From assembly GCA_021613535.1 (NCBI GenBank), contig CP075492.1, positions 15,314,001 to 15,378,000 of the forward strand: DNA of 64,000 nt, written 5' to 3'. The translations under genes and the position numbers were made by a program. Below, piece after piece: positions 6,317 to 38,041 of the stretch. The stretch comes from Adineta vaga (lineage: Eukaryota > Animalia > Rotifera). Under the pieces are notes generated by a model, which did not search any database, was not told where the DNA came from, and saw only the letters and a list, made by a program, of their open reading frames with translations. Every line of letters starts with the position of its first letter. The first letter of the stretch is position 1.

Positions 6317-7094
6317 TCAATCAGGACGTTATTGGAAAAAAACAAAAAATATTCAAATAGAAATGGATCGATATAAACCATTAATATGTTCGAGACTAAA
6401 GACAGTCGGAAAATATACTTAGTATGTACACTGGCACTGTTTTCGAAGTGTTGATTTTTTTATTTGCATAAACTGCTAACATTCCACCCATCTTTGTTTT
6501 TTTTTGTGAAGAAGAAATCGATAATAGGTAAAAGTGTGGAATATTTCGGGATTGAATTAAGTTTCCTAATATAGAACTCCTAATCTGATCATCTAACTAT
6601 TTTGTTTATACAATTACATAGTAACTTATCTTATTCATATTCTGTTGCTTCACTTTGTTTCTAATTCAGATTTCTCAATGTTCTTCCTTGTAATGTTTTT
6701 TCAATTCAACAAGAATACTATTATATCCTCTTAAAGACTCACTAGAGTACGGAACAAAGTATAAACATACAAGATTATGTATTTACGTATTTTTTTCATC
6801 TTATTGTACTATCAGTTTTCACTAATTAAATATAGAAATATGAATAAAATCTATAATAGGGTTCTACAAATGATGTTGTCTTTTATATTAAAAATATTGA
6901 TTGAAACTTGTTGAGCACTTTTCATTGGGATAAAAATCATTATTCCTGATTTTTACGAGTTTTGTTTCTAATTAATAAATATGTTATCAGATTTCGCTTT
7001 TATTTACCTGTGTTTAAAGAAAATGTTTATCGTCGCAGTCTTTATCTTATATCAACAAAGAAAGAGTCATAGAAAAAAGAAATTAGTCAGTCAA

Positions 7095-8924
7095 ATGGGT
7101 GATAGAAGAGATGATGCATACGAAACATACAATATTAAATGTATTTGGATGGATAAAGTGCTCGATGTTAACAATACTCGGTATCGTAAATTAATTAAAC
7201 GAGTAAAATCTTTTATGCATGATTTTATCACGTATCATGATGCTTCTGAATATATTAAATCGACTGAAAATCTCGATGGGAAAAACTGTTTGGTGATTAT
7301 TTATGATAGTCTTGAAGAACCGACGTTCTCTTGTATACATGCTATGTTGCAAATCGATTCGATTTTTATCTTTTGTGAAAATAAACAACGATATGAATCA
7401 TGGTGGAAAGATTATTCGAAAATTAAAGGTATTTTCACAGATGTTACACTTCTCTGCCAAGCACTCAATCAAACATCGATTCAATATGAACGAAATATGA
7501 TTCCAATTAGTTTTGTACATGATTCAACTGTCGATCGACTCGATCCATCATTTATGTACACACAGATTTTAAAAGAAATTCTCTTAACTATTGATTTCAA
7601 CGAAAAACATTTCAAAGAATTCATTCGTTATTGTCAAAAAATCTTTCATAGCAATGATCTTGAATTGAAAAATATCAAGAGTTTAGAAAAGGAATATTAC
7701 AGATCGACGCCTATTCGATGGTACACATGGAATGCATTTCTTTATCATATGCTCAATGGTGCATTGAGATCCATGGATGTTGATATTATCATTCGTATGG
7801 GTTTCTTCATTGGTAGTCTTTATCGACAGATTGAACAGCTTCATTTGGAACAATTAGGAACGAATTATTCGAATGGTTCATTTCTAGTTTATCGTGGTCA
7901 AGGTTTAAATAGAATAGATTTTGATGAAATGAAAAAGAGTAAAGGTAGATTAATATCATTTAATAATTTTTTATCGACAAGTAAAGATCGTACTGCATCG
8001 AAGAAATTCGCTTTAAAAGCTACAATTAATCCAAATCTAATTGGAATTCTGTTTATTATCAAAATTGATCCAAATCAATCAACAACATCATTTGCATCAA
8101 TTGCTGATCTTAGTTGGTATCCCAAAGAACATGAAGTTCTCTTTTCTATGCATGCAGTCTTTCGTCTTGGAGATATCGAAATAATGAAAGAAAATGATCA
8201 ACTCTATGAAGTCAATTTAATATTAACCAATGAGACAGATGAAGATCTTCTAGACTTGACTGCTCGTATGCGCGAAGAAATCAATTGCATTGAAAAAGGA
8301 TGGTTTCGTCTTGGATCATTATTGCTTACATTAAATCGTTTTGATAAAGCTGAAGGTGTGTATAACTTTTTACTCAAACAAAAATTGAATGAAGATGAAA
8401 AAGTTTCGGTCTATAATTCACTTGGTGAAATCAAAAGAAATCAAAAAGATTTTAAAAAATCAGTTAAATTTTACAAAAAAGCACTTGATATCGACAAAAA
8501 TTCAACCATTTACAATAATATCGGACTGGTTTATTACAATTTAGAGAATTATCGAAAAGCACTTGAAAATTACAACAAAGCTATTCGAAGAACACAATTA
8601 AACTATAATCTAAATGAAATTTATTTGAGTAGTATTTACAATAATATTGCTTTGGTATATGGTAAAATGTATGATTATGGAACGGCACTTAATTTTCATC
8701 AAAAAGCTCTCAAAATTCAAGAAGATCGACTTCCGGAAAATCATCGTGATATAGCGATGTCTTGTAATAATATTGGTATGATTTATTATTATATGGGCAA
8801 TTCTTCGGGAGCACATGCTTATCTTCAACGTGCAGTTAATATTGGACAATATTCATTAGAAGTGAATCATCCGCATTTCTTATTATATAAAGACAATTTT
8901 GAGCTTATGCTACAAGGAACGTAA
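7095..8924 (+). CDS. NAD:arginine-type (R-S-E) ADP-ribosyltransferase with C-terminal TPR repeats
   Basis: Intronless ORF with ART motifs VYRGQ, NNFLSTS and KEHEVLF. Several TPRs follow (YNSLG, YNNIG, YNNIA, CNNIG). Likely start is ATG 7095 (MGDRRDD); the ORF is open from 6981. Confidence 0.9.
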   Translation: MGDRRDDAYETYNIKCIWMDKVLDVNNTRYRKLIKRVKSFMHDFITYHDASEYIKSTENLDGKNCLVIIYDSLEEPTFSCIHAMLQIDSIFIFCENKQRYESWWKDYSKIKGIFTDVTLLCQALNQTSIQYERNMIPISFVHDSTVDRLDPSFMYTQILKEILLTIDFNEKHFKEFIRYCQKIFHSNDLELKNIKSLEKEYYRSTPIRWYTWNAFLYHMLNGALRSMDVDIIIRMGFFIGSLYRQIEQLHLEQLGTNYSNGSFLVYRGQGLNRIDFDEMKKSKGRLISFNNFLSTSKDRTASKKFALKATINPNLIGILFIIKIDPNQSTTSFASIADLSWYPKEHEVLFSMHAVFRLGDIEIMKENDQLYEVNLILTNETDEDLLDLTARMREEINCIEKGWFRLGSLLLTLNRFDKAEGVYNFLLKQKLNEDEKVSVYNSLGEIKRNQKDFKKSVKFYKKALDIDKNSTIYNNIGLVYYNLENYRKALENYNKAIRRTQLNYNLNEIYLSSIYNNIALVYGKMYDYGTALNFHQKALKIQEDRLPENHRDIAMSCNNIGMIYYYMGNSSGAHAYLQRAVNIGQYSLEVNHPHFLLYKDNFELMLQGT

Positions 8925-9093: not shown

Positions 9094-11593
9094 ATGTCAT
9101 CAAAAGCAGTTTTAGCATCATCGACCAATACGAGTGTTAAGTCGAATAAATCCGAATCGAAATGGATTAAAGTTTGTTGATCTTTCAACTTAATCTCATC
9201 TGTATCGTTTTTCTTAGTATCGTCGTCCGCTGTTGTTCTTTTTATTGGGTATGGTCCTTGTTTTTATTATCGCTTTGATTGTTCTTCTAACAAAAAAGGA
9301 TTCTTGTGCAAAACCCACTCCAACTCCTCCATCACCTGCGGAATGGAATGCAAGTGATTATCAAACAAATTATGATTATTATCGACATTTTGATCAAAAA
9401 TCTGATCTAACACCGGCCGATAATCTACGAATGGATCGATTATCATCACCAAGATTTTGTCCAGGTGATAGTTCGAAAATAATCTATTTAAGAAAGCAAT
9501 ATCATATGCCGGATTTAAACGGTTCATCAACAACGTTACATTGGGTTGATATGAGTGAACCAATAAAACCAAATACAATACAATTAACTCGTCCAATATG
9601 GGGTATTCATGATCAACAAGTAAGATTAGAGAACGTTATTTGAAAATATTTCTATGAAAGATATTGTGTCTTTAGTTTTATTGGATCGATAAATCAACAA
9701 TTCTTTTTCTATCAAATCGTGGATCATCGAAACTTAATCAAATCTTTCAATTAAATCTTCCATCGGATGTATCAAAAGTCGAAAATTTTATTGAACCAAT
9801 ACAAATAACGGATTTTCCTTTAGATATTGACAATCTTTTAGTCAATCGTCAAGCTACTCGTCTTGCTTTCAGTTGTCAAGTCTATGCAAATTTAACTATC
9901 GAAGATACTGCTACTCGAGTAGCTTCCGAAAAAGAAAGTGGCAGTTTGGTCTATAAATTCGATAAATTATTCATTCGTCATTGGGATGAATATATGACAG
10001 GTTTACGTCATCATCCATTTGTTGCTTCAATCGAACGAGATACACATGGAACATATAAATTAAACTCAACATTAACTGATGTTCTCTTCGGTATTGATAG
10101 TGATTCACCAACGCGTCCATTCGGTGATGCGAAATCACAATGGTCATTTAGTGCTAGTGGAAATTCTTTTGCATTTACAAGACAACATGATGAAAAAAGT
10201 GAAGTCGCATGGTCAACTAATTTGGATATTTATACTGTTGATTTATCTCAATCGGTTAGCCGAATAAATGTATTACCTGTAAGAATCTTGCAGCTGATAC
10301 AGATCCAAAATATTCACCTACGGATGAAAATATCTTAGTCTATCGAGCACAATCAGTTCCTGGCTATGAATCAGATCAATTCAAATTGCAATTATACGAT
10401 GGTAAGAAAAATACTTGAGAAAAATAAACTATATCTTCTAATTTCGGATGTTTTTTTCTCAAGGTACGACAACAAAAACATTATTGGATGATTGGGATCA
10501 AAGTATTCAAGTTGCAACATGGACTAGTAATGGACAATCACTTTTTCTTGAACTAGGTGAACAAGCAAATCATGTTGTTTATCAAGTTCTTGATGTTCTT
10601 ACTTCCAATATAAGCGTGATTCATCGAGGATCTATCAATGGAACTTCACATGATATTAATCCTGATCCAAATGATGATCAAACATTCGTTTTGACGTATG
10701 AAAATTTAGTCCAACCAACAAATATCGTTTTACAAAAAAATACATTCTCATTTCCAGCTACTAAACATAACGAAATGTTAATCGATCGAATACGTTGGAG
10801 TCCTACCTATGAACCATTTTCATTCATTGGTGCACAGAATGATACTGTTTGGGGATGGCATGTTCCACCCATCAATGGTACTACTGGTTCAAAAGCACCA
10901 CTGGCTTTTCTTATTCATGGTGGTCCACAAAATAGTTGGTATAATACTTGGGGTCGTGGATGGAGTTTTCAATCATTTGCTGCTCAAGGTTATGCTGTTA
11001 TTGCGATCAATTTTCATGGTTCAGATTCCTATGGACAAAATTTTACAGATAGTATTACTGGTGAATATGGATCTTTACCTTTCGATGATCTTCAATTGGG
11101 ATTAACAGCTGCTTTAGAAAAATATACTTATATTGATGGTAGTCGAGCAGTAGCTTTAGGTGCAAGTTATGGTGGATATATGATTAATTGGATTGCTGGA
11201 CATCCAGAAATGAGTCAACGTTTTCAAGCACTTGTTAATCATGATGGTTTATTTGATATGCGGGAAATGGCGTATGCTACAGAAGAATTATGGTTTACTG
11301 AACATGATGCAGGTGGTTTTACGCAATATAATAATCCGGAAGCATTTGAAAAATTTAATCCCGTCAATCATGTAGCTAATTGGACACAACCAATGCTTAT
11401 TATTCAAGGTGGACGTGATTATCGTGTCGTTGATACTCAAAGCATTGGTGCATTTACAGCTTTACAACGTCGAGGCATTCCAAGTCGTATGCTTTATTTT
11501 CCCAAAGAAAATCATTGGACCTTAAATCCATTCAATTCCTTGGTTTGGTATCAAGAAATATTTGATTGGATGAAAGAATGGACACAAAAATAA
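9094..11593 (+). CDS. S9-family dipeptidyl peptidase (DPP5-like) with N-terminal membrane anchor; 4 exons; frameshift ~10257
   Basis: Motifs LFIRHWD, IHGGPQ, GASYGGY nucleophile elbow, DYRV (Asp) and ENHW (His). Introns ~9172-9217, ~9620-9675 and 10402-10463. The shifted frame NLAADTDPKYSP...PGYESDQ continues the propeller. Confidence 0.88.
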
Positions 11594-12194: not shown

Positions 12195-12572
12195 TTACCA
12201 AACTGGCGTCATTTTTGTTGGTTGTGTTTGATTATTATATGTAGAATACGGTGGAGGTTGATTATTCAACGGCAACTGATTAGAAGGTACTGCTTGACTA
12301 AAACCTGGTGGTGCATACGGATTTCCACCTTGCGCCGTTGTCAGTCGGTTTAATATCGCTGCCTGAGCTACTTTTTGTCTCTTCACTTGCATTATTGTAC
12401 AAACAATCGATACTACAATTAATATTATGAAGAAAACACCACCACCTACTGCAATACCTATAATCGCTTCCGTCGATAATGAACCAGAACCACTACTACC
12501 ACGGCTATAAGAACGTGCGGAGCATATCTGAATAACACAGATCGATAATAATGATAGAAAAAAAGCTTCCAT
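12195..12572 (-). CDS. Small single-pass membrane protein (signal peptide, TM, Pro-rich tail with PPPY; Shisa/CYYR1-like architecture), copy 1
   Basis: MEAFFLSLL signal, AIIGIAVGGGVFFIILIVVSIVC TM, QPPPYS motif. Reading frame is conserved with the paralog. Confidence 0.8.
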   Translation of the reverse strand: MEAFFLSLLSICVIQICSARSYSRGSSGSGSLSTEAIIGIAVGGGVFFIILIVVSIVCTIMQVKRQKVAQAAILNRLTTAQGGNPYAPPGFSQAVPSNQLPLNNQPPPYSTYNNQTQPTKMTPVW

Positions 12573-13483
12573 TTGCGAAGAAATATTTTGTTTGAATGAA
12601 GTATAGAAAAGAAAGAACAAACAAATAAATAGGTCACGATTTCGTTACTTATTGCTGACGTCAACGGTATTGCTCTGCGTCAACGGAGAACACACAAAAG
12701 CACATTTTAATGTAAACAGAACGCTATTTTTTTACTTTTCTTTTAATGATTTTGTCGATTTTTTCACGTCATCATCTCACAGAATGAATAGAGACCTTCA
12801 ATCGCAGTGACATACATATTGCTTCTCGACGAAAGAGAAAATGATGGCGGCAGACCTTTACTTTCCTGATTTTCGACGAGATTCTTCATTTGATAAGTTT
12901 TATTATTGAAAACAAGATGAATAAGAATAGTTGTTCAATAGTTATGAAAACAATCAGATAAATATTGTGCAAAAAATAGCATCAATATAGTTTTTGTAAA
13001 TTTTTTCTTTTCAATTACCAAGTCAATTATTAATGATCGATATCGCTAAATTTAAATAAATTTCTCTTCTTCAGATCGTTATTAGATTATTAAGCTTGTC
13101 ATTTCTTTTGCACATTACATATGATTCGTACTAATTCAAATCTACATGTCTCCCAACATCAATCATCGTATTTTCACTCTAATGCAAAATTTCTAAAATA
13201 ACTGAAAAGAAACTGAAATGCTTACATAGGTAGTTCGCATGTCATCATCAGTAGATTAATTGACTTCTTTGTACTAATGAGCAATATTATTCGTATTTCA
13301 GATATTTTTTTAATTTCAAGTGACTTTTTATGCATAAAAATCTAGAAATGTTTTTAATATTATAGTAGAATAATTCGTGTAATCGATATACGAACAAAAT
13401 CATTAGGCTTACCGACCATTTCAATTAGTCACCAATTATGTTCCAATGCATTATGTATGCAAAGTTCGCCAGTCGCTTTTATG

Positions 13484-14225: not shown

Positions 14226-14573
14226 TCATCCAACTGACGGCATTTTTGTTGGTTGTGCTTGAGTATAAGATGGCGACTGATTAGAAGGTACTGCTTGACT
14301 AAAACCTGGTGGTGCATACGGATTTCCACCTTGAGCCATGCCCATTCGATTTAACATTGCTGCCTGAGCTACTTTTTGTCTCTTCACTTGCATTATTATA
14401 CAAACAATCGTTACTACAATTAATATTATGAAGAAAACACCACCACCTACTGCGATACCGATAATCGCTTCCGTCGATAATGAACCAGAACCACTACTTC
14501 CACTGCTATAAGTACGTGCGAAGCATTCCTGAATAGCACCAATCGATAATAATGATAGAAAAAAAGCTTCCAT
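14226..14573 (-). CDS. Small single-pass membrane protein, copy 2 (lacks PPPY)
   Basis: Paralog of 12195-12572 with a net 10-aa in-frame shortening of the tail. Confidence 0.8.
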   Translation of the reverse strand: MEAFFLSLLSIGAIQECFARTYSSGSSGSGSLSTEAIIGIAVGGGVFFIILIVVTIVCIIMQVKRQKVAQAAMLNRMGMAQGGNPYAPPGFSQAVPSNQSPSYTQAQPTKMPSVG

Positions 14574-14910
14574 TTGCGAAGAAATATTTTGTTTGAATGA
14601 AGTTTAGAAAAGAAAAAACAAACAAATAAATAGGTCACAATTTTGTTACTTATTGCTGACGTCAACGAATAATACATCAACTCACTTTTTAATGTATATA
14701 GAGAACACGATTTGTTACTTTTCTCAGAGTGATTTTGTCGACTTTTTTCACGTCGTCATCTCACAGGACGGAAAGACCTTCAATTATAGAATGTTATAGA
14801 TGTCTTTGTTCGATTGAAAAGAAAGTAATGAGTGTCGGAATATGATTGTTTTTAATTTCATTCATACTCACACCTTAAAAATGATCATTCTTGTGATACA
14901 GTCAATTGAA

Positions 14911-29511: not shown

Positions 29512-30570
29512 TTATAAAATTTTAACTACAATTTTTCCAAATCCAACTTTTCCTTGTTTTATTTGATTGAGAGTATTTTCTACTTCTTCGAGTTTAATTA
29601 TTTTATTTATATATGGTTTTAATTTTCCATCTTCCATCTATTTTGCTCCTTAAAGTAATGTATCATGAACAAGTGTTTTTAATTGTGCTCGTTCAGCTCC
29701 TAACCAATAACGTGCCATATCGGCATGAACAACGTTTGCTTTTCGTTGAGCAACATTGTTCGCTTCTGAACTGCCTTCTTTTCCAAACCCACCAAGAACA
29801 ATCCATGAGCCACCTTCTTTTACAACTTGAGTTGATTTTTCAAAACTTGATGGAAGATAAGTTGAATCATAAACAACATTGGCACCTTGTCCTTCTGTTA
29901 ATTCAAGTACACGATCGACAATATTTTCTTTGGCATGATTGATAACATCATTAACTTTATATTGTTCTTTGAGAATCTGTATTCCATCATCTTTTGATGC
30001 TGATGTAATCACTTGTTTCGCACCACGTATTTGAGCAATTTGTACACTAAAATGACCGACACCACCTGAACCACTAGGAATAAAAACTGATGTTGTTGAA
30101 TCAATATTAACTTGACGAAGACCATCCATAGCAGATAAAAATGCAATACCAAGTGTTGCTGCATCTTCATGACTAATCGTACTAGGTTTCTTGGCTAATC
30201 CATCAACTTCTCCAACAGAATATTGTTGAAATGCTCCACCACCATTACTCGAATCGAGATTTAAAATGCCAAAAACTTCATCACCAACTTTTAAATATTG
30301 AACATCTTTTCCAACTGCAACAATTCGACCACTAACATCATAACCTGTTGTTGCTGGTAACTTAACGTTAGCAAAATTAATTGCTGCCATTTTATAATCA
30401 ACTGGATTAAGAGAAACAGCATGGTTTTCAATTAAAACTTGATTAGCACCTAATTCTGATGATTTGATTACTGATGCTGATGTTGTCCATTGAAATGCAT
30501 TTGTATCACTTACTCTAACCCACTGTAAGGCTGATTGAATTGTTGGTAAATTTTGTTGAACAGATGCCAT
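29512..30570 (-). pseudogene. MDR-superfamily NADPH quinone/enoyl oxidoreductase with two in-frame stops near the C-terminus
   Basis: AVSLNPVDYK, GYDVSGRIVAVG, GSGGVG. The frame continues after TAA and TAG as MEDGKLKPYINK...GKIVVKIL*. Intronless. Confidence 0.8.
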
Positions 30571-32289
30571 GTTATTCAAAAGAATTTTATCGAAAAATTT
30601 ACTCGTATTATTTTATATGTTATAAATAGATGTGTAATGATGGCAATGCAAAATAGAAATAGAAAAACATTAGGTAGACAGTAAGTCCGTCCATGTTTTT
30701 TATATGTTGATTCATAAGGAAAGAAAAGAGAGAAAAGCATGAAATACCATTATGTTATTTATAGTTATTATTGTTGCATAGAAGATATCATGGTATTTAG
30801 TTGAGTCAATCTAAAAAAAGCATTTTCAACTATTAAGTTAGTCGCCGTTTATCAATGGTTTATTTTATTTTATTTTGAATATTAGTCTTCAAGTATTAAC
30901 GCATATTTTGTCTATGTGACAAATGTCGCGTATTGTAGAAGTCTCGAACCGCCTCGTCTGTATTTACTATTCATTACATACATCATCGATTTGGATTAGA
31001 CATCGATTGTACTTTAGATATCACTTGACAACTTCCATTTCTTTCTTTAAAATTATGATTTAAACTGGTTAACAATAGTGCATCTCTCTATTGCATGTAT
31101 ATTCATGGTCATATAGCTTCGCGATCTCCATGACACTTCTGTGCATTGTCAGATAAATGAGCACTGTTGTCTATAATAAATATATTTGCGGATGCGGGTA
31201 ACATATTTACACCCCATTTCGTCCTCATTCTCATGTCTGCTAAAAAAATACCGATCAAATATATCAACTGCACGAGGTATGCGACTATTGTTTCTTTTCT
31301 TCTTCTACACCATATGCATGCACAAACACGTGTGTCGTACTCTTGTACAACATGGGAGATAAATTATGAATGATTTGTATAGGGCACTAACCATGTTTTT
31401 CTCCGTTCTCTTTGTTGTTTATCGAAAAATACCAACCAAACATATTGACAAAGAAGCAAATTTGTTGACTTCTAGTGGGAAAAAACCATCAGTGAATAGG
31501 AAAATGTCGTGTATAAAAGACAGAGATTTGATCAAGATATTATTAAGTGATACTCGACATAGAAACCAATACAATATCCTTCGATATACTTTCAACTTTT
31601 GCTGTTTTACTTATTGCAATGTAGTGAATAACTGTGAACAAGTTAATCAACGACATATATCAATAAAAAATGTGTAGTAAAAAACAATAAAAGGTTCATT
31701 TCTATTTACGCATTGTATCATACAATGATTTGTATTGAATTAGATACAGATTAATCTATTTTTCTTTGATCTATTTTCAATATTATATGTCTACTTTTCC
31801 TATAATTCTAATCAGTCACTATAGCATGTTGTATTTTTCCTTCTTGCTATTCATTCTGACTTTATCTATTAATTTTATCCTTTTCTCCTTACTGGATATA
31901 TTATATTTTGTCCTTGTTAAGGCTCCGCATGGGATGGATATGGGATGCTGTAAGCTGACGTCTGCAGGCAAAAATTCAGGAGCATTGGTCGAATTCATCT
32001 AGTTGTACGGTAGTTTTCATTTAGAACCCTAAACCTACAATGCGTATATGCATCTGACTCATATATGTTGTCCTTCTTATCTTTATGATTGATTATAGAT
32101 AAGAAGAAAGAAACGAAATAGAAGTAAATCGCATGTACACACAGTTATTCTATAAAAATTTCTTAGTCTGTTTAATCTTCTTTCCTTTGTATGACGCGTT
32201 TTGTAAATGATAAGTTATCGGTTATTTCCATAGTATATGGTGAGAAAAATCCAAGAATAGTTTTTTTCCCACTAAATGACTAGCTCCAC

Positions 32290-32417
32290 TATAAAAAAAG
32301 GTGAATGAAGTGATAGTTTACTAATAAATTATTACTAACGGTAAGGATTCACCACGGGAGCAAAATATCCAAGATTCTTGCTCATTTTGATAAGTACGAA
32401 TAAACTTCTTGTTTCAG
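32290..32417 (+). promoter_or_regulatory. TATA box and putative 5'-UTR intron of the toxin gene
   Basis: TATAAAA at 32290. Candidate donor GTAAGG at 32341 and pyrimidine tract TTCTTGTTTCAG ending 32417, 19 nt before the ATG. Confidence 0.5.
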
Positions 32418-32436
32418 ATTTCTATTAGCAACAATT

Positions 32437-32676
32437 ATGAGCAACCCATCGAAGGGAGTCCCGGTACCTGGTCAGAGTCCTATATGGACAGAATTGAAAC
32501 ATTATCGAGGCCAGATAAAATCCAACGACAAAGTCGATAAATTTTATGAATGGGATTATACACATGGCGACATTGAAGTATACAATAAACGAGGTGAACA
32601 CTTAGGTACTATGGATGGCAATACTGGTGATATGACCAAAAAAGCTGTCAAAGGTCGTAAAAAGAACTTTGACTGA
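32437..32676 (+). CDS. Stand-alone colicin E3/CdiA-CT-like ribosomal RNase toxin domain (79 aa)
   Basis: YEWDYTHGDIEVY..RGEHLGTMDGNTG...KGRK aligns with colicin E3 YEWDSQHGELEGY...GQHLGSFDPKTG...KR. The D/H/E catalytic positions are retained. AATAAA at 32714. Confidence 0.88.
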   Translation: MSNPSKGVPVPGQSPIWTELKHYRGQIKSNDKVDKFYEWDYTHGDIEVYNKRGEHLGTMDGNTGDMTKKAVKGRKKNFD

Positions 32677-32772
32677 GCCGATATAGTGTTCACTTATATA
32701 TACTCGATTTACAAATAAAATAAAATAAAAATTATGTTCGATTTACGCTCGTTTCAATTATTGAGCTGATGG

Positions 32773-32853: not shown

Positions 32854-35800
32854 TTAAATAAAAGAATCGTCGTCAATCTTGATTTCAGTTGGTATGAATT
32901 GTAGATGACTTAAATTTTCTATCGGAGGTGTTAATTGCATCGAGTGACGGCGAGGAGTAAATTCAATTGTTTCACCTGAATAACGTGGATATAAAACATC
33001 AGGCGAACTCATTTCAGTTCGAAGTGAAGGAGTACGTTCGCTATTGTGAATCGTAAGATAATTTATTTCATCTTCTTTTGTCCATGTAAATACAATACAA
33101 GATAGGTTTAAGCGATAAGAAGCCGATGACTCAAGTGATATGAACGATGGTGAAGTAATATTGATGTCTTTATCATCCAAAATATGTACAAGTGTTCCAG
33201 CAAGAAGAAATAATCTATCATTCGTTCTTAAATTGACAATCATTTCCGATTTGTGTTTCAATAATATTGCTTTTTCATATAAGAGTAATTTCATTTGAGA
33301 ATGATTTTCTTTTAATTCTAGCTGATATTTATTAATCAGCATTTGAAGAGTAATTTCTATGTAAATTTCATAACACATCGTCTCATCAGCTAACCAAGTA
33401 TCCAACAAATCTGTATCGATAACAAATGCTTCTACAAGTCCACTACTAACAGTACATGTGTTTTGAAATTGAGAGATTTCTATCCGAGAAAATAATGTAT
33501 CGATACCGACAATATTACCATTCATATAATAGATTGGTATCTGATCAATTTTACATTCAATAATACCACGAATGATAAGATATGCAGTTGAAACTGGTTG
33601 ATTCTCTTCTAATAAAATCGTATCTGGTTGAAACCATCGATGTTTGCTTTTCATGATAGATTTCCAATGGAGTTTATCAGTTTGAGAAAGTGTTTTAAAA
33701 ATTGATAATAAATCAAATGGATCTTCGATAATTTTCTTTTGATCTACAGATAATTGAATCGTACCATATTCTAAATTGAATATTTTATTTTCGATAAATT
33801 TACGAATATGTGTATATTCATTATCATCAAGTATTCCCGTTTCAAACAGATGAATAATAGCAACTGATTGTGTTTAAGAAGCATTTGTGCACATCGTTTT
33901 GTCATTTGAGCAGTCCAACAAAGTTGATATGATCGTCGTAAATCATGAAGAACACGTGCAGCATGAAGTTGAAATTTCTTTGATTCTTGACAAACTTCGT
34001 TCATTATTTGTTCATCGATTGTAGCTAATTCCGGAAATAAAAATAAAATATTATCGATTCGAGTTTTAGCTGAATGAAACGCAAGTGTTAATTCAATAGT
34101 TAAAAGTATATGATCGAATAAGAGTTTATTTGTCCATTGATTGATAAAATCAAAACAATTCAATCGCATTGAATTTAATACTACCGATGATAATTGAAAA
34201 TGTTCAATAAGAAGTTGCCAATGTAATTGAAATGAACGTTTTTGTTTTGCTTGTTCAACTGATTTAATAAGAATATCAAGTGTTCGTCGGTGAAGCATAC
34301 CAAGATACCATTGTTTTTCATAATCGATTGACATAGCTGTTAAAAATCGAATGACAAGTTCATTTCGAATATTTTGTTGACGTTCATTATTGATATTATT
34401 TATTGAAATTGTTTCAAATTGTTGATCGATATTTGTATTCAATGGTTGAGAAGATTCTTCCGTTAAAATATTTATTTCTTGATCAATAATAAGATCTCTT
34501 TCATCATTTAATTCCTTTAATAATCTCTTTGGTAAATATTCATCAAGTACCTTCCAATCAACTTCAGCAAATTTTTCATCTTGTTTCATTTGTAATAATC
34601 GAGAAAATGTATCTCGTTGCATGTGTTCAAGAGCTTGTGATAGAACTATTTGGCTTTCTTTTGCTCCTAAAATAGTTCATATAAAACATAGAATTAACAA
34701 GTATATGTTACATACCTTGTTTTAAACCAAGAAAATGAACAAAAAATTTGCTTGTAGTTCCATTAATGATTAAAGTAAGAAGTGCAATCATAGATACATG
34801 AAATAAAAAATGATGTCGTGTTACACTATCAATTCTTGTATCTAAATCAACCATTAATACTAAAATAAGTGCCATACTACCTCGTAAACCACTCCATATA
34901 AGAACAAGACCATCTTTCCATGATATATGTACACCACTTCGACGAATTAATGGATAAAGAAGAATAACTGTCAATGCACGTCCAATATGAATAACAACAT
35001 ACAAAAGAATTGAAAATATAAAATCTTGTGCAATAATAGTCGTTGCTGTATTAACTAATGATTTAGCTAAGATAATACCGGTCACAGTAAAAATCATAAT
35101 ATTAATCAAATAAGTAGCCATTCGCCAAGTACTAACCAATGAAATTTGTACATTACTACTGATACAATATTTATGTTTGGCCATATACAAACCCATTGTA
35201 ACAAGTGCAAGAACAGCAGAAACACCTAATTCAACATCAGCAATAAAAAAAATGAGATAAGATATAGCAAATGTAAATGAAATTTCAATTTCAAGTTCAT
35301 TATTGATTCGATTGAGAATCATAACACAAATAAAACCGGAAATAAGACCAAATACAGGTCCACCTGAAATATAATAATATAAATAGAAAGAATTAGAAAA
35401 TTATTTAATTCAATACCAATACTAAATTTAACAATATCCGTTGTAATTAATCTTGCGTTATATGTTTCACCAACAAAAATTTTTTTAAAAATCAAAAAAA
35501 TAACAAATGCAGAACCATCATTTAATAATGATTCGAAATCAATCAATGAAGCCAATGATTTACTTGCACCGGAATCATGTAATAATGCAACAACAGCAAT
35601 TGGATCTGTTGCACAAAGGATACTACCGAATAAAAGGCCAGTTAACCATGACCATTGATATGGAAATACGTAAACACTAAAAATGGCAATAATAACAGTA
35701 GAAATTAATACACCCGGACCAGCTAAAAGAATGGCTGATAATAGTTGATGTTTAACTAGATAAAAATGACCATTAAATGATGAATCAAAGATTAGTAGAG

Positions 35801-36077
35801 GTAAAAAAATATAATAAATAAGATGAGGATGAATTTCACTCAGTTCAATTTCTCCACGTTGAAAATTATTGGTAATGTTTTTTGAGTGTGTTACAATTAA
35901 ACCAATAATAAAACTGAGAATAAGAATGGTAACTGTAAAAGGAATTGGAATTTTATTTTTTAAAATTTTTGAAAGTATAATTTTGCTCAAACATGCTGCT
36001 AATACGGAAAACGATAAGAATAAAATAACAACACCAATATTTTTTTCTGTATGTTCGTCGACACTCGTCGTATTCAT
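32854..36077 (-). CDS. CPA1 Na+/H+ exchanger of SOS1/SLC9C type with C-terminal cyclic-nucleotide-binding-like domain (3 exons; frameshift ~33869)
   Basis: FLPLLIFDSS, ATDPIAVV, ESLLNDGS, WSGLRGS, INGTT. Introns ~35365-35419 and ~34668-34714. A helical cytosolic region is followed by CNBD-like YLIIRGIIEC...GNIVG. Confidence 0.85.
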
Positions 36078-37100: not shown

Positions 37101-38041
37101 GACTTTTAAAATCACTAATATTTCTGCTACTGTTTAGTTAACAATCCTGTGATGCATACGAAGAGAGAGTAAAAGTTAAAAAAAAGCACATTTTAATTTT
37201 TAGGTGATTGCTTATGATTATTCGATCCAACACAAACTGCACAGTCAAATCGTCTATAAACGAGATGTTCGTTGAATTTGATAGCTTCATTGATTGACGG
37301 TGTGGATGTTGCTCTTGCAATTTCTCATACCTACCTTCACATCCTCAAAACGTGTTTTCTTCAAATATGAAGCACAACAGAGATTTTATTAAACATAGAG
37401 GCACCTGGTTACTTCGGATGGCAATGAAATGTATATTGTTTTTTCAACCAAAACTTTCAAATAATTATAAACATTTTCTCTCTTTGGTGTATTAATAGCT
37501 ATATTTGACTTCATTACTGAACTCTGAAAAAATAGATGAAACCGATCAGTAAGAAGTTAGTAATATCTTCGGATTTAGTAAATGATTAACTGAAAATTCT
37601 ATCTTAACCAAACCAATGGTGAAATCTATCAATTGATCTCAACAAGACGTTCTTTTGTTAGTGCAAAACCAAAGTAATTTAAATAACACATCCGATATTT
37701 TTTTTTCAGTTCTATTTCTTCCATAAAAACCATTTTCTTTATATTTTTTCATCGTTATTCTATCCGATCTAGAAAAAAAACTTTTTCTTTTCTGTTGAAA
37801 ACTGTTTTATGAAGCGGTTATAGTTGTTTCATTTTTTCCTGCTATTTCATCAAGGTAATCTAATCGATTATTCTAGTGCGAGTCTCGAAGTGAGCTATTG
37901 CAATTCATTAGAAAGTTAGTTTTCAGTTTTGTGAAATAAGGTACTGCGCATTGACGTCATGGCTTTTAAATCAAATAAAAAAAAATATCGTTAGCAATTC
38001 ACCCAGAAAAAGAATCTTTCTTTTTGTTGCTGTTTATATCC

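Follow-up and report, generated by a model that had tools for sequence, protein, structure and literature searches.

Bacterial antagonism genes have been redeployed in animals before, as with the domesticated amidase effectors (dae) and insect cdtB; the first is a peptidoglycan amidase, the second a DNase, and neither must reach a ribosome. For colicin E3 (ColE3), whose C-terminal domain is an rRNase, the proposed active site consists of D55, H58 and E62, and a second histidine (its H72) is better conserved (PMC3482391). This domain (ColE3-CT) is toxic to such a degree that it could not be cloned on an inducible plasmid, and four members of its Pfam family (PF09000, Cytotoxic), picked for their distance from ColE3, each proved toxic to E. 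coli and cleaved 16S rRNA at the site that ColE3 uses (PMC9304027). The same site is cut by CdiA-CT ECL (PMC9086364). Ribotoxins equivalent to ColE3-CT are described as unreported in eukaryotes (PMC9304027). A duplicated, bacteria-derived 'Cytotoxin' family carrying the Pfam Cytotoxic domain has been described in Rhizophagus irregularis (Li et al. 2018, PMC5982333).

The gene analyzed here encodes a colicin E3-like rRNase of 79 residues and lies in a 64-kb stretch of the genome of the bdelloid rotifer Adineta vaga, hereafter the window. A preliminary description, made from the letters of this stretch, had presented it as a single domesticated toxin gene of bacterial origin, unaccompanied by an immunity gene. 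The locus was compared with its relatives in rotifers, bacteria and fungi, among them six further rotifer-type loci for which DNA was available (L001-L006).

Toxin domain and predicted active site

The protein (pI 9.2, 9.1 kDa) has no signal peptide, and its ORF carries no N-terminal delivery or receptor-binding domains. The profile search proposed in the preliminary description returned PF09000 at 49.7 bits (E 4.7e-13), above the curated Pfam cut-off of 22, and the five PDB sequence matches are all colicin E3 (best E 1.1e-6), which bears out the assignment of the ORF as the toxin domain alone. In the ESM Atlas, PF09000 clusters and one hemagglutinin cluster were retrieved and nothing else; NCBIfam held no family for the four toxin rows that were tested. 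A structural model was built with AlphaFold2 from an alignment of 17 rows (pLDDT 89). When this predicted structure was submitted to Foldseek, the top five matches were all ColE3 chains (E 2e-4 to 1e-3), and no other structure had an E value under 0.001. Comparison of the model with the ColE3 RNase using VIA gave a Z score of 9.0 and an rmsd of 3.4 Å with 79/79 residues aligned, at about 30% identity in the structural alignment; CdiA-CT ECL came next with a Z score of 5.3, all others scoring 3.7 or less.

In the alignment to chain 1e44_B, residue 29 of the window protein pairs with residue 44, so that D40, H43, E47 and H55 correspond to D55, H58, E62 and H71 of ColE3. All four are present, and the catalytic motif is intact as first described. 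Within the rotifer clade of 45 rows delimited below, Y37, D40, H43, E47, H55 and R74 are retained in 45, 43, 45, 45, 45 and 44 rows, respectively; the complete set is kept in 42 and a single residue is changed in the other three. These three are two Rotaria rows with G at D40 and one secreted-type row with Y at R74 (P0020, P0021 and P0174), and they are possibly inactive copies. Since the key residues are kept in 42 of the 45 rows and distant PF09000 members cut 16S rRNA, the window protein is predicted to be likely active as an rRNase. A protein that has kept the fold and lost the rRNase activity, for an RNA-binding or other role, or a gene in decay, is very unlikely. The roughly 30% identity to ColE3, the changed residue in three rows and the branch of the window copy (0.14, longer than that of its sister) would fit such a loss, but the predicted catalytic residues are complete in the window copy as in the 42 rows, and the distant family members that were assayed were active (PMC9304027).

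Gene layout and genomic surroundings

The predicted TATA box, 5'-UTR intron signals and polyadenylation signals are found where they had first been noted (Table 1), and the layout recurs in the closest orthologue for which DNA is available (L001-L003, one coding sequence, 81% identical to the window gene). In L002 the TATA box precedes the donor by 50 nt (51 nt in the window) and the acceptor precedes the ATG by 19 nt, as in the window. The L002 5'-UTR intron measures 121 nt and its interior cannot be aligned with the window intron; only the acceptor and exon-2 UTR align upstream of the two genes, over 29 nt (0/2000 shuffles). A single occurrence of the TATA/intron/ATG pattern was counted in the 64 kb, against 0.12 expected from shuffles; as the pattern was drawn up after both loci had been inspected, its recurrence in L002, rather than the shuffle count, is the real evidence for the layout. 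AATAAA is also present within 70 nt after the stop in L001-L006, a weak sign by itself, the DNA being AT-rich. An upstream signal-peptide exon was considered for the window copy and rejected, the sole ATG ahead of the donor (32305, 15 nt downstream of the TATA start) being followed by a stop after two codons.

Table 1. Coordinates of the features of the toxin-domain gene, its neighbours and its family members (window positions unless a locus is named)
Feature	Position	Strand	Basis or remark
Predicted TATA box, TATAAAA	32290..32296	+	sequence; counterpart 50 nt before donor in L002
Short first exon, non-coding, without ATG	32320..32340	+	start presumed about 30 nt after TATA
Predicted 5'-UTR intron, 77 nt, GT-AG (GTAAG...TTTCAG)	32341..32417	+	same position in L002
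Exon-2 5' UTR, 19 nt	32418..32436	+	equally long in L002, with identity over the first 14 nt
Stand-alone colicin E3-like rRNase domain (PF09000 / Tox-ColE3)	32437..32676	+	ORF of 79 aa; profile and model
Codons of predicted catalytic D40, H43, E47, H55	32554..32601	+	alignment to 1e44_B
3' UTR stretch conserved with distant member L004	32681..32724	+	37 matches in 46 columns
Predicted polyadenylation-type signals AATAAA at 32714 and 32724	32714..32729	+	sequence
L004 3' UTR match	L004 590-635		partner of window 32681-32724
Convergent neighbour, Na+/H+ exchanger (PF00999)	32854..36077	-	Pfam match
Divergent neighbour, zinc-type alcohol dehydrogenase / quinone-reductase-like ORF	29650..30579	-	
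Family member with predicted signal-peptide exon	L006 862-1275 (also L005)		

The 3' UTR of the window gene is closer to that of the distant member L004 (0/5000 shuffles) than to that of the orthologue L002 (254/5000). A stable fold was looked for in this stretch and none was significant (z -0.48, -0.90 and 1.25). The synonymous distance of the window gene is also smaller to L004 (dS 0.44) than to L002 (dS 0.91), although protein identity ranks the opposite way. A conserved regulatory element, uneven synonymous rates, or an old gene conversion or exchange between bdelloid copies may account for this anomaly. A simple recombination breakpoint joining L002-like and L004-like parts was rejected, the informative synonymous sites being distributed 8:8:2 and interleaved.

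The surroundings are eukaryotic, and the adjoining exchanger contains introns, as had been reported; both are of the GT-AG type (35416-35364, 53 nt, and 34715-34667, 49 nt). The exchanger gene also shows a frameshift near 33870 (33865-33880, minus strand) with no room for an intron, indicating either a pseudogene or an assembly error. Neighbours in L002, L004 and L006 are likewise of eukaryote type (F-box, DJ-1/PfpI, a weak GPCR match and NHL repeats). Orthologues were found (L001-L003), but synteny is not conserved in the loci compared: neither the exchanger nor the dehydrogenase adjoins the gene in L001-L006, where the only matches to the window neighbourhood are paralogous F-box/LRR genes. 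Elsewhere in the window, TPR-repeat genes were noted at 6972-8924 (+), with a matched ADP-ribosyltransferase domain, and at 42923-45157 (-), similar by eye. A GH28 polygalacturonase (48733-49968, -), an S9 peptidase (9218-11593, +) and a weak TIR_2 match (51903-52265, +) are candidate foreign or immune genes. The window also holds a broken reverse transcriptase resembling a retrotransposon remnant (59513-61048, -), a small membrane-protein gene present as a duplicated pair (12195-12644 and 14226-14603, -) and three related long ORFs in tandem (37979-42024, +), one of which was scanned and had no Pfam match.

Relatives in rotifers, bacteria and fungi

Relatives were drawn from the best 150 of 954, 120 of 515 and 120 of 232 matches of the respective searches, the second of these, a profile search, adding further metagenome members. 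The nearest named relative of the window protein is from Adineta ricciae (87% identity), and further annotated relatives belong to Rotaria sp. Silwood1, Rotaria sp. Silwood2, R. magnacalcarata and Didymodactylos carnosus. According to the NCBI taxonomy these animals span the bdelloid orders Adinetida and Philodinida; the gene, described at first as a single one, is instead a member of an old family present across two orders. The Adineta and Didymodactylos proteins are already labeled colicin E3-like in UniRef.

A first FastTree phylogeny was computed on 267 of 276 proteins, the nine without the domain motif being dropped, and contained a clade of 45 rows (support 0.91) in which the window protein was joined by every one of the 10 named rotifer rows and by 34 rows without a taxon name. 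The same 45 rows were recovered in a second tree of 345 of 357 proteins (support 0.76), and no named bacterium fell inside the clade among the 345 domains. An IQ-TREE analysis was then restricted to 95 rows and 78 columns (25/45 rows of the clade, 5/11 of the fungal type and 65/211 others). It recovered the rotifer clade, lying among bacterial relatives, with a support of 99/86 for the clade, a value to be read with the facts that the clade was defined after the first tree, that the columns are few, that the bootstrap had not fully settled and that the tree is unrooted. This placement agrees with the bacterial origin suggested in the preliminary description. The family likely derives from a single acquisition from bacteria by an early bdelloid rotifer. 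Substitution rates calculated by the Nei-Gojobori method, another check proposed beforehand, gave a dN/dS of 0.117 for the window gene against L002 (bootstrap 0.04-0.26), which is purifying selection relative to the closest orthologue. Values of 0.12-0.22 were obtained in 5/6 pairs, window-L002 included; for the window gene against L004 the value was 0.62 (0.30-1.34), indistinguishable from 1.

Outside the rotifers, the closest relatives among the best 150 of 954 matches come from bacteria (about 55-65% identity), and GC3 is higher in the toxin-domain gene (0.36) than in four long ORFs of the window (0.12-0.23). Both observations would fit bacterial contamination or mis-assembly, but an identical protein is found on a 20.35-Mb contig (20,354,754 bases), annotated relatives exist in A. 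ricciae, three Rotaria taxa and Didymodactylos, and the eukaryote-type neighbours of L002, L004 and L006 accompany a conserved intron layout. In view of the long contig, the five named rotifer taxa and the intron layout, contamination is extremely improbable and was rejected.

Among the best 120 of 232 longer matches (173-2000 aa), the relatives that come nearest outside the rotifers are Rhs, hemagglutinin and HINT-linked tips. None of these 120 is named as rotifer or falls inside the 45-row clade, and no fused rotifer form was found among them, a result that says little about other genomes. Immunity ORFs were sought by a positional rule, as the first ORF of at least 55 aa whose start lies between 40 nt upstream and 120 nt downstream of the toxin stop. 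The bacterial loci examined were L007-L037, some of them redundant; L038-L040 were left out as weak matches. An overlapping downstream ORF, whose start precedes the end of the toxin stop codon by 1-29 nt, is present in 31/31 bacterial loci versus 0/7 rotifer-type loci. In the window and L001-L006 (seven loci, four distinct) no immunity ORF is adjacent, the longest ORF being of 30 aa; the absence first claimed for the window is borne out. From their position, the bacterial ORFs would be immunity genes; DUF6980 was recognized in one of the four that were scanned. The small ORFs that overlap the toxin ends in L007-L037 fall into at least three unrelated types (DUF6980 and two without a Pfam match among those scanned) and are candidate new immunity families of bacterial Tox-ColE3 genes. 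The 31 bacterial downstream ORFs were also compared by tblastn with the window and L001-L006; a single match, obtained from two identical queries (21% identity, E 0.003) and located 10 kb away, was judged to be due to chance and rejected as a nearby immunity homologue.

The bacterial toxin had been described as normally fused to delivery domains and paired with an immunity gene. A putative immunity ORF accompanies the toxin in the 31 loci, but the toxin frame is closed at only 79-122 codons in 7/31 of them. Since such short toxin-immunity cassettes exist, a fused protein is not required as the donor, and a stand-alone cassette is a plausible source on the evidence of these loci.

The statement that a signal peptide is lacking was found to hold for the window copy; a sister sub-clade has a predicted signal-peptide exon. 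In L005 and L006 (one coding sequence), the ATG opens a hydrophobic exon of 17 residues (mean hydropathy 3.2). After it come a phase-1 GT-AG intron of 84 nt and a second exon whose frame stays open across the domain; the hydrophobic exon probably encodes a signal peptide. These rows group with R. magnacalcarata rows that are labeled partial in a sub-clade supported at 99/100, of which four other members start with a similar acceptor-like read-through. Rows of Adineta, Rotaria and Didymodactylos have the form without signal, and it is among these rows that the signal-peptide sub-clade is nested. The start of exon 2 in L006 faintly resembles the window 5' UTR read in frame; a common ancestral intron at the two loci is a speculative explanation.

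Proteins from Rhizophagus irregularis and R. diaphanus combine a hydrophobic N-terminus, a Cys-containing linker and a colicin E3-like domain, and to judge by this composition they look like secreted effectors. A variable number of Cys-rich repeats precedes the domain in Rhizophagus and related proteins (P0026, P0205, P0283, P0151 and P0227). The fungal branch is separate from the rotifers (96/91), and a clade uniting the two is not rejected (AU p 0.205); independent captures by fungi and rotifers are favoured by the free tree and are not claimed as shown. The rotifer sub-clade with a predicted signal-peptide exon and the putative secreted-type versions in mycorrhizal fungi are new here.

Possible roles and known counterparts

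The analysis established the family, the fold of the model, the residues, the clade, the selection relative to the closest orthologue and the absence of an adjacent immunity ORF. On the role, we favour tentatively, with somewhat less than even confidence, a domesticated decoding-centre ribotoxin deployed against microbes that are eaten or that infect the animal. The gene would be transcribed by Pol II and its 5'-UTR intron spliced; the protein would cleave rRNA, independently of metal, at the equivalent of A1493/G1494 in the small-subunit decoding centre. The host would be spared through 70S preference and/or inducible expression and not through an immunity protein. The small basic protein would meet microbial ribosomes after breach of the envelope, in the gut or in infected cells, and members of the signal-peptide-exon sub-clade would be exported. 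For the window copy, the step of reaching microbial ribosomes is the weakest.

External targets are suggested by the signal-peptide-type forms of rotifer-type loci and of Rhizophagus. The occurrence of such forms in two eukaryotic lineages favours an antimicrobial role, together with the precedent of horizontally acquired insect RIPs. In contrast, the slow change of the conserved family counts against an effector engaged in conflict, because such effectors often evolve fast. The window copy, with no export signal or translocation domain, would also meet host ribosomes first, which argues against the antimicrobial reading, as do the cleavage of 18S rRNA reported for ColE3 (PMC4639596), the dN/dS of the window-L004 pair and the three rows with a changed residue. 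The insect RIPs are infection-induced and modify parasite rRNA (10.1101/2023.02.09.527842), and acquired genes are up-regulated in bdelloids challenged by a fungal pathogen (PMC11258130). In the latter study, the 13 supplement files searched out of 16, a set without the main expression table, contained no colicin or PF09000 entry.

A self-directed ribotoxin is an unlikely alternative that nevertheless deserves real weight: a silent or scarce cytosolic protein would, on infection or stress, cut the 18S decoding centre of its own cell, stopping translation or killing the cell in a manner resembling abortive infection, possibly with reversal by RNA ligases. The wide distribution of the unsignalled form, within which the signal-peptide sub-clade is nested, is consistent with this, and the 3' UTR stretch shared with L004 might allow strict regulation; however, a signal-peptide branch makes little sense for cleavage of the animal's own ribosomes. 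Cell loss is moreover costly in animals with a fixed cell number. ColE3 reportedly cleaves the 18S rRNA of isolated eukaryotic ribosomes in vitro (review, PMC4639596), 98 eukaryotic RtcB2 repair ligases are known for which damage to the 40S decoding centre is predicted (PMC9304027), and RNA ligases rank with the most strongly induced genes of bdelloids under fungal infection, but those ligases belong to other families (PF13563 and others) and are not enriched in desiccation (PMC11258130).

An active RNase exapted outside defence, digesting the ribosomes of food bacteria or serving rRNA turnover or quality control, is slightly less likely than the self-directed ribotoxin. A routine role would agree with the long retention, the purifying selection and the slow change of the gene, and bdelloids do eat bacteria (E. 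coli was fed in PMC11258130), but a single rRNA cut yields little nutrient and the characterised PF09000 members in the table of PMC9990079 are all toxins.

Returning to the antimicrobial ribotoxin, a broader version is entertained with slightly more reserve. Bdelloids would possess the first animal family of decoding-centre ribotoxins, a single ancient capture freed of its immunity gene, with cytosolic and secreted branches, used as an innate-immune weapon, the same domain having been captured independently by fungi. Bacteria pair colicin E3-type domains with an immunity gene; bdelloids keep one unguarded by a neighbouring immunity ORF, under purifying selection, across two orders. Such a host must either tell 70S ribosomes from 80S at a site that is nearly universal or keep the gene under tight control, and either answer would be informative. 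An animal ribotoxin family, if confirmed, would supply the missing eukaryotic source of the decoding-centre damage predicted for RtcB2 repair, and the rotifer and fungal families make the question of eukaryotic decoding-centre ribotoxins testable with a 79-aa protein. The surprise is tempered by precedents for domesticated toxins in animals, by the fungal transfer noted in 2018 and by the abundance of transferred genes in bdelloids, the highest of any animals (PMC13342648). A literature search that excluded most subscription papers turned up no account of a rotifer colicin-E3 gene, and supplementary lists of transfer candidates may contain it.

Compared with known systems, the rotifer gene shares its Pfam family, fold and D/H/E/H residues with the C-terminal rRNase of colicin E3 and with Rhs, CdiA and WXG tips (CdiA-CT EC16, pyocin S6), but it differs from colicin E3, Rhs and CdiA by the lack of a delivery domain and of an adjacent immunity ORF, by its animal host and by its eukaryotic promoter, intron and polyadenylation layout. 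CdiA-CT ECL (PDB 4NTQ) has a similar fold (rmsd 2.4 Å over 58 residues) but only 12% identity, and belongs to another sequence family. The 'Cytotoxin' family of R. irregularis has in common with the rotifer gene the Pfam domain and a transfer from bacteria to a eukaryote; its proteins differ in being fungal, with a hydrophobic N-terminus and Cys-containing linker, and in forming a separate branch, and rRNase activity is not discussed in the passages concerned of PMC5982333. Insect RIPs (PMC5431988; 10.1101/2023.02.09.527842) are likewise foreign anti-ribosome toxins in an animal, under purifying selection and proposed as immune effectors, but they are N-glycosidases acting on the large-subunit sarcin-ricin loop and belong to an unrelated enzyme family. 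The domestication of a foreign toxin by an animal is thus already known, and what is new for animals is the class of enzyme and its predicted target site.
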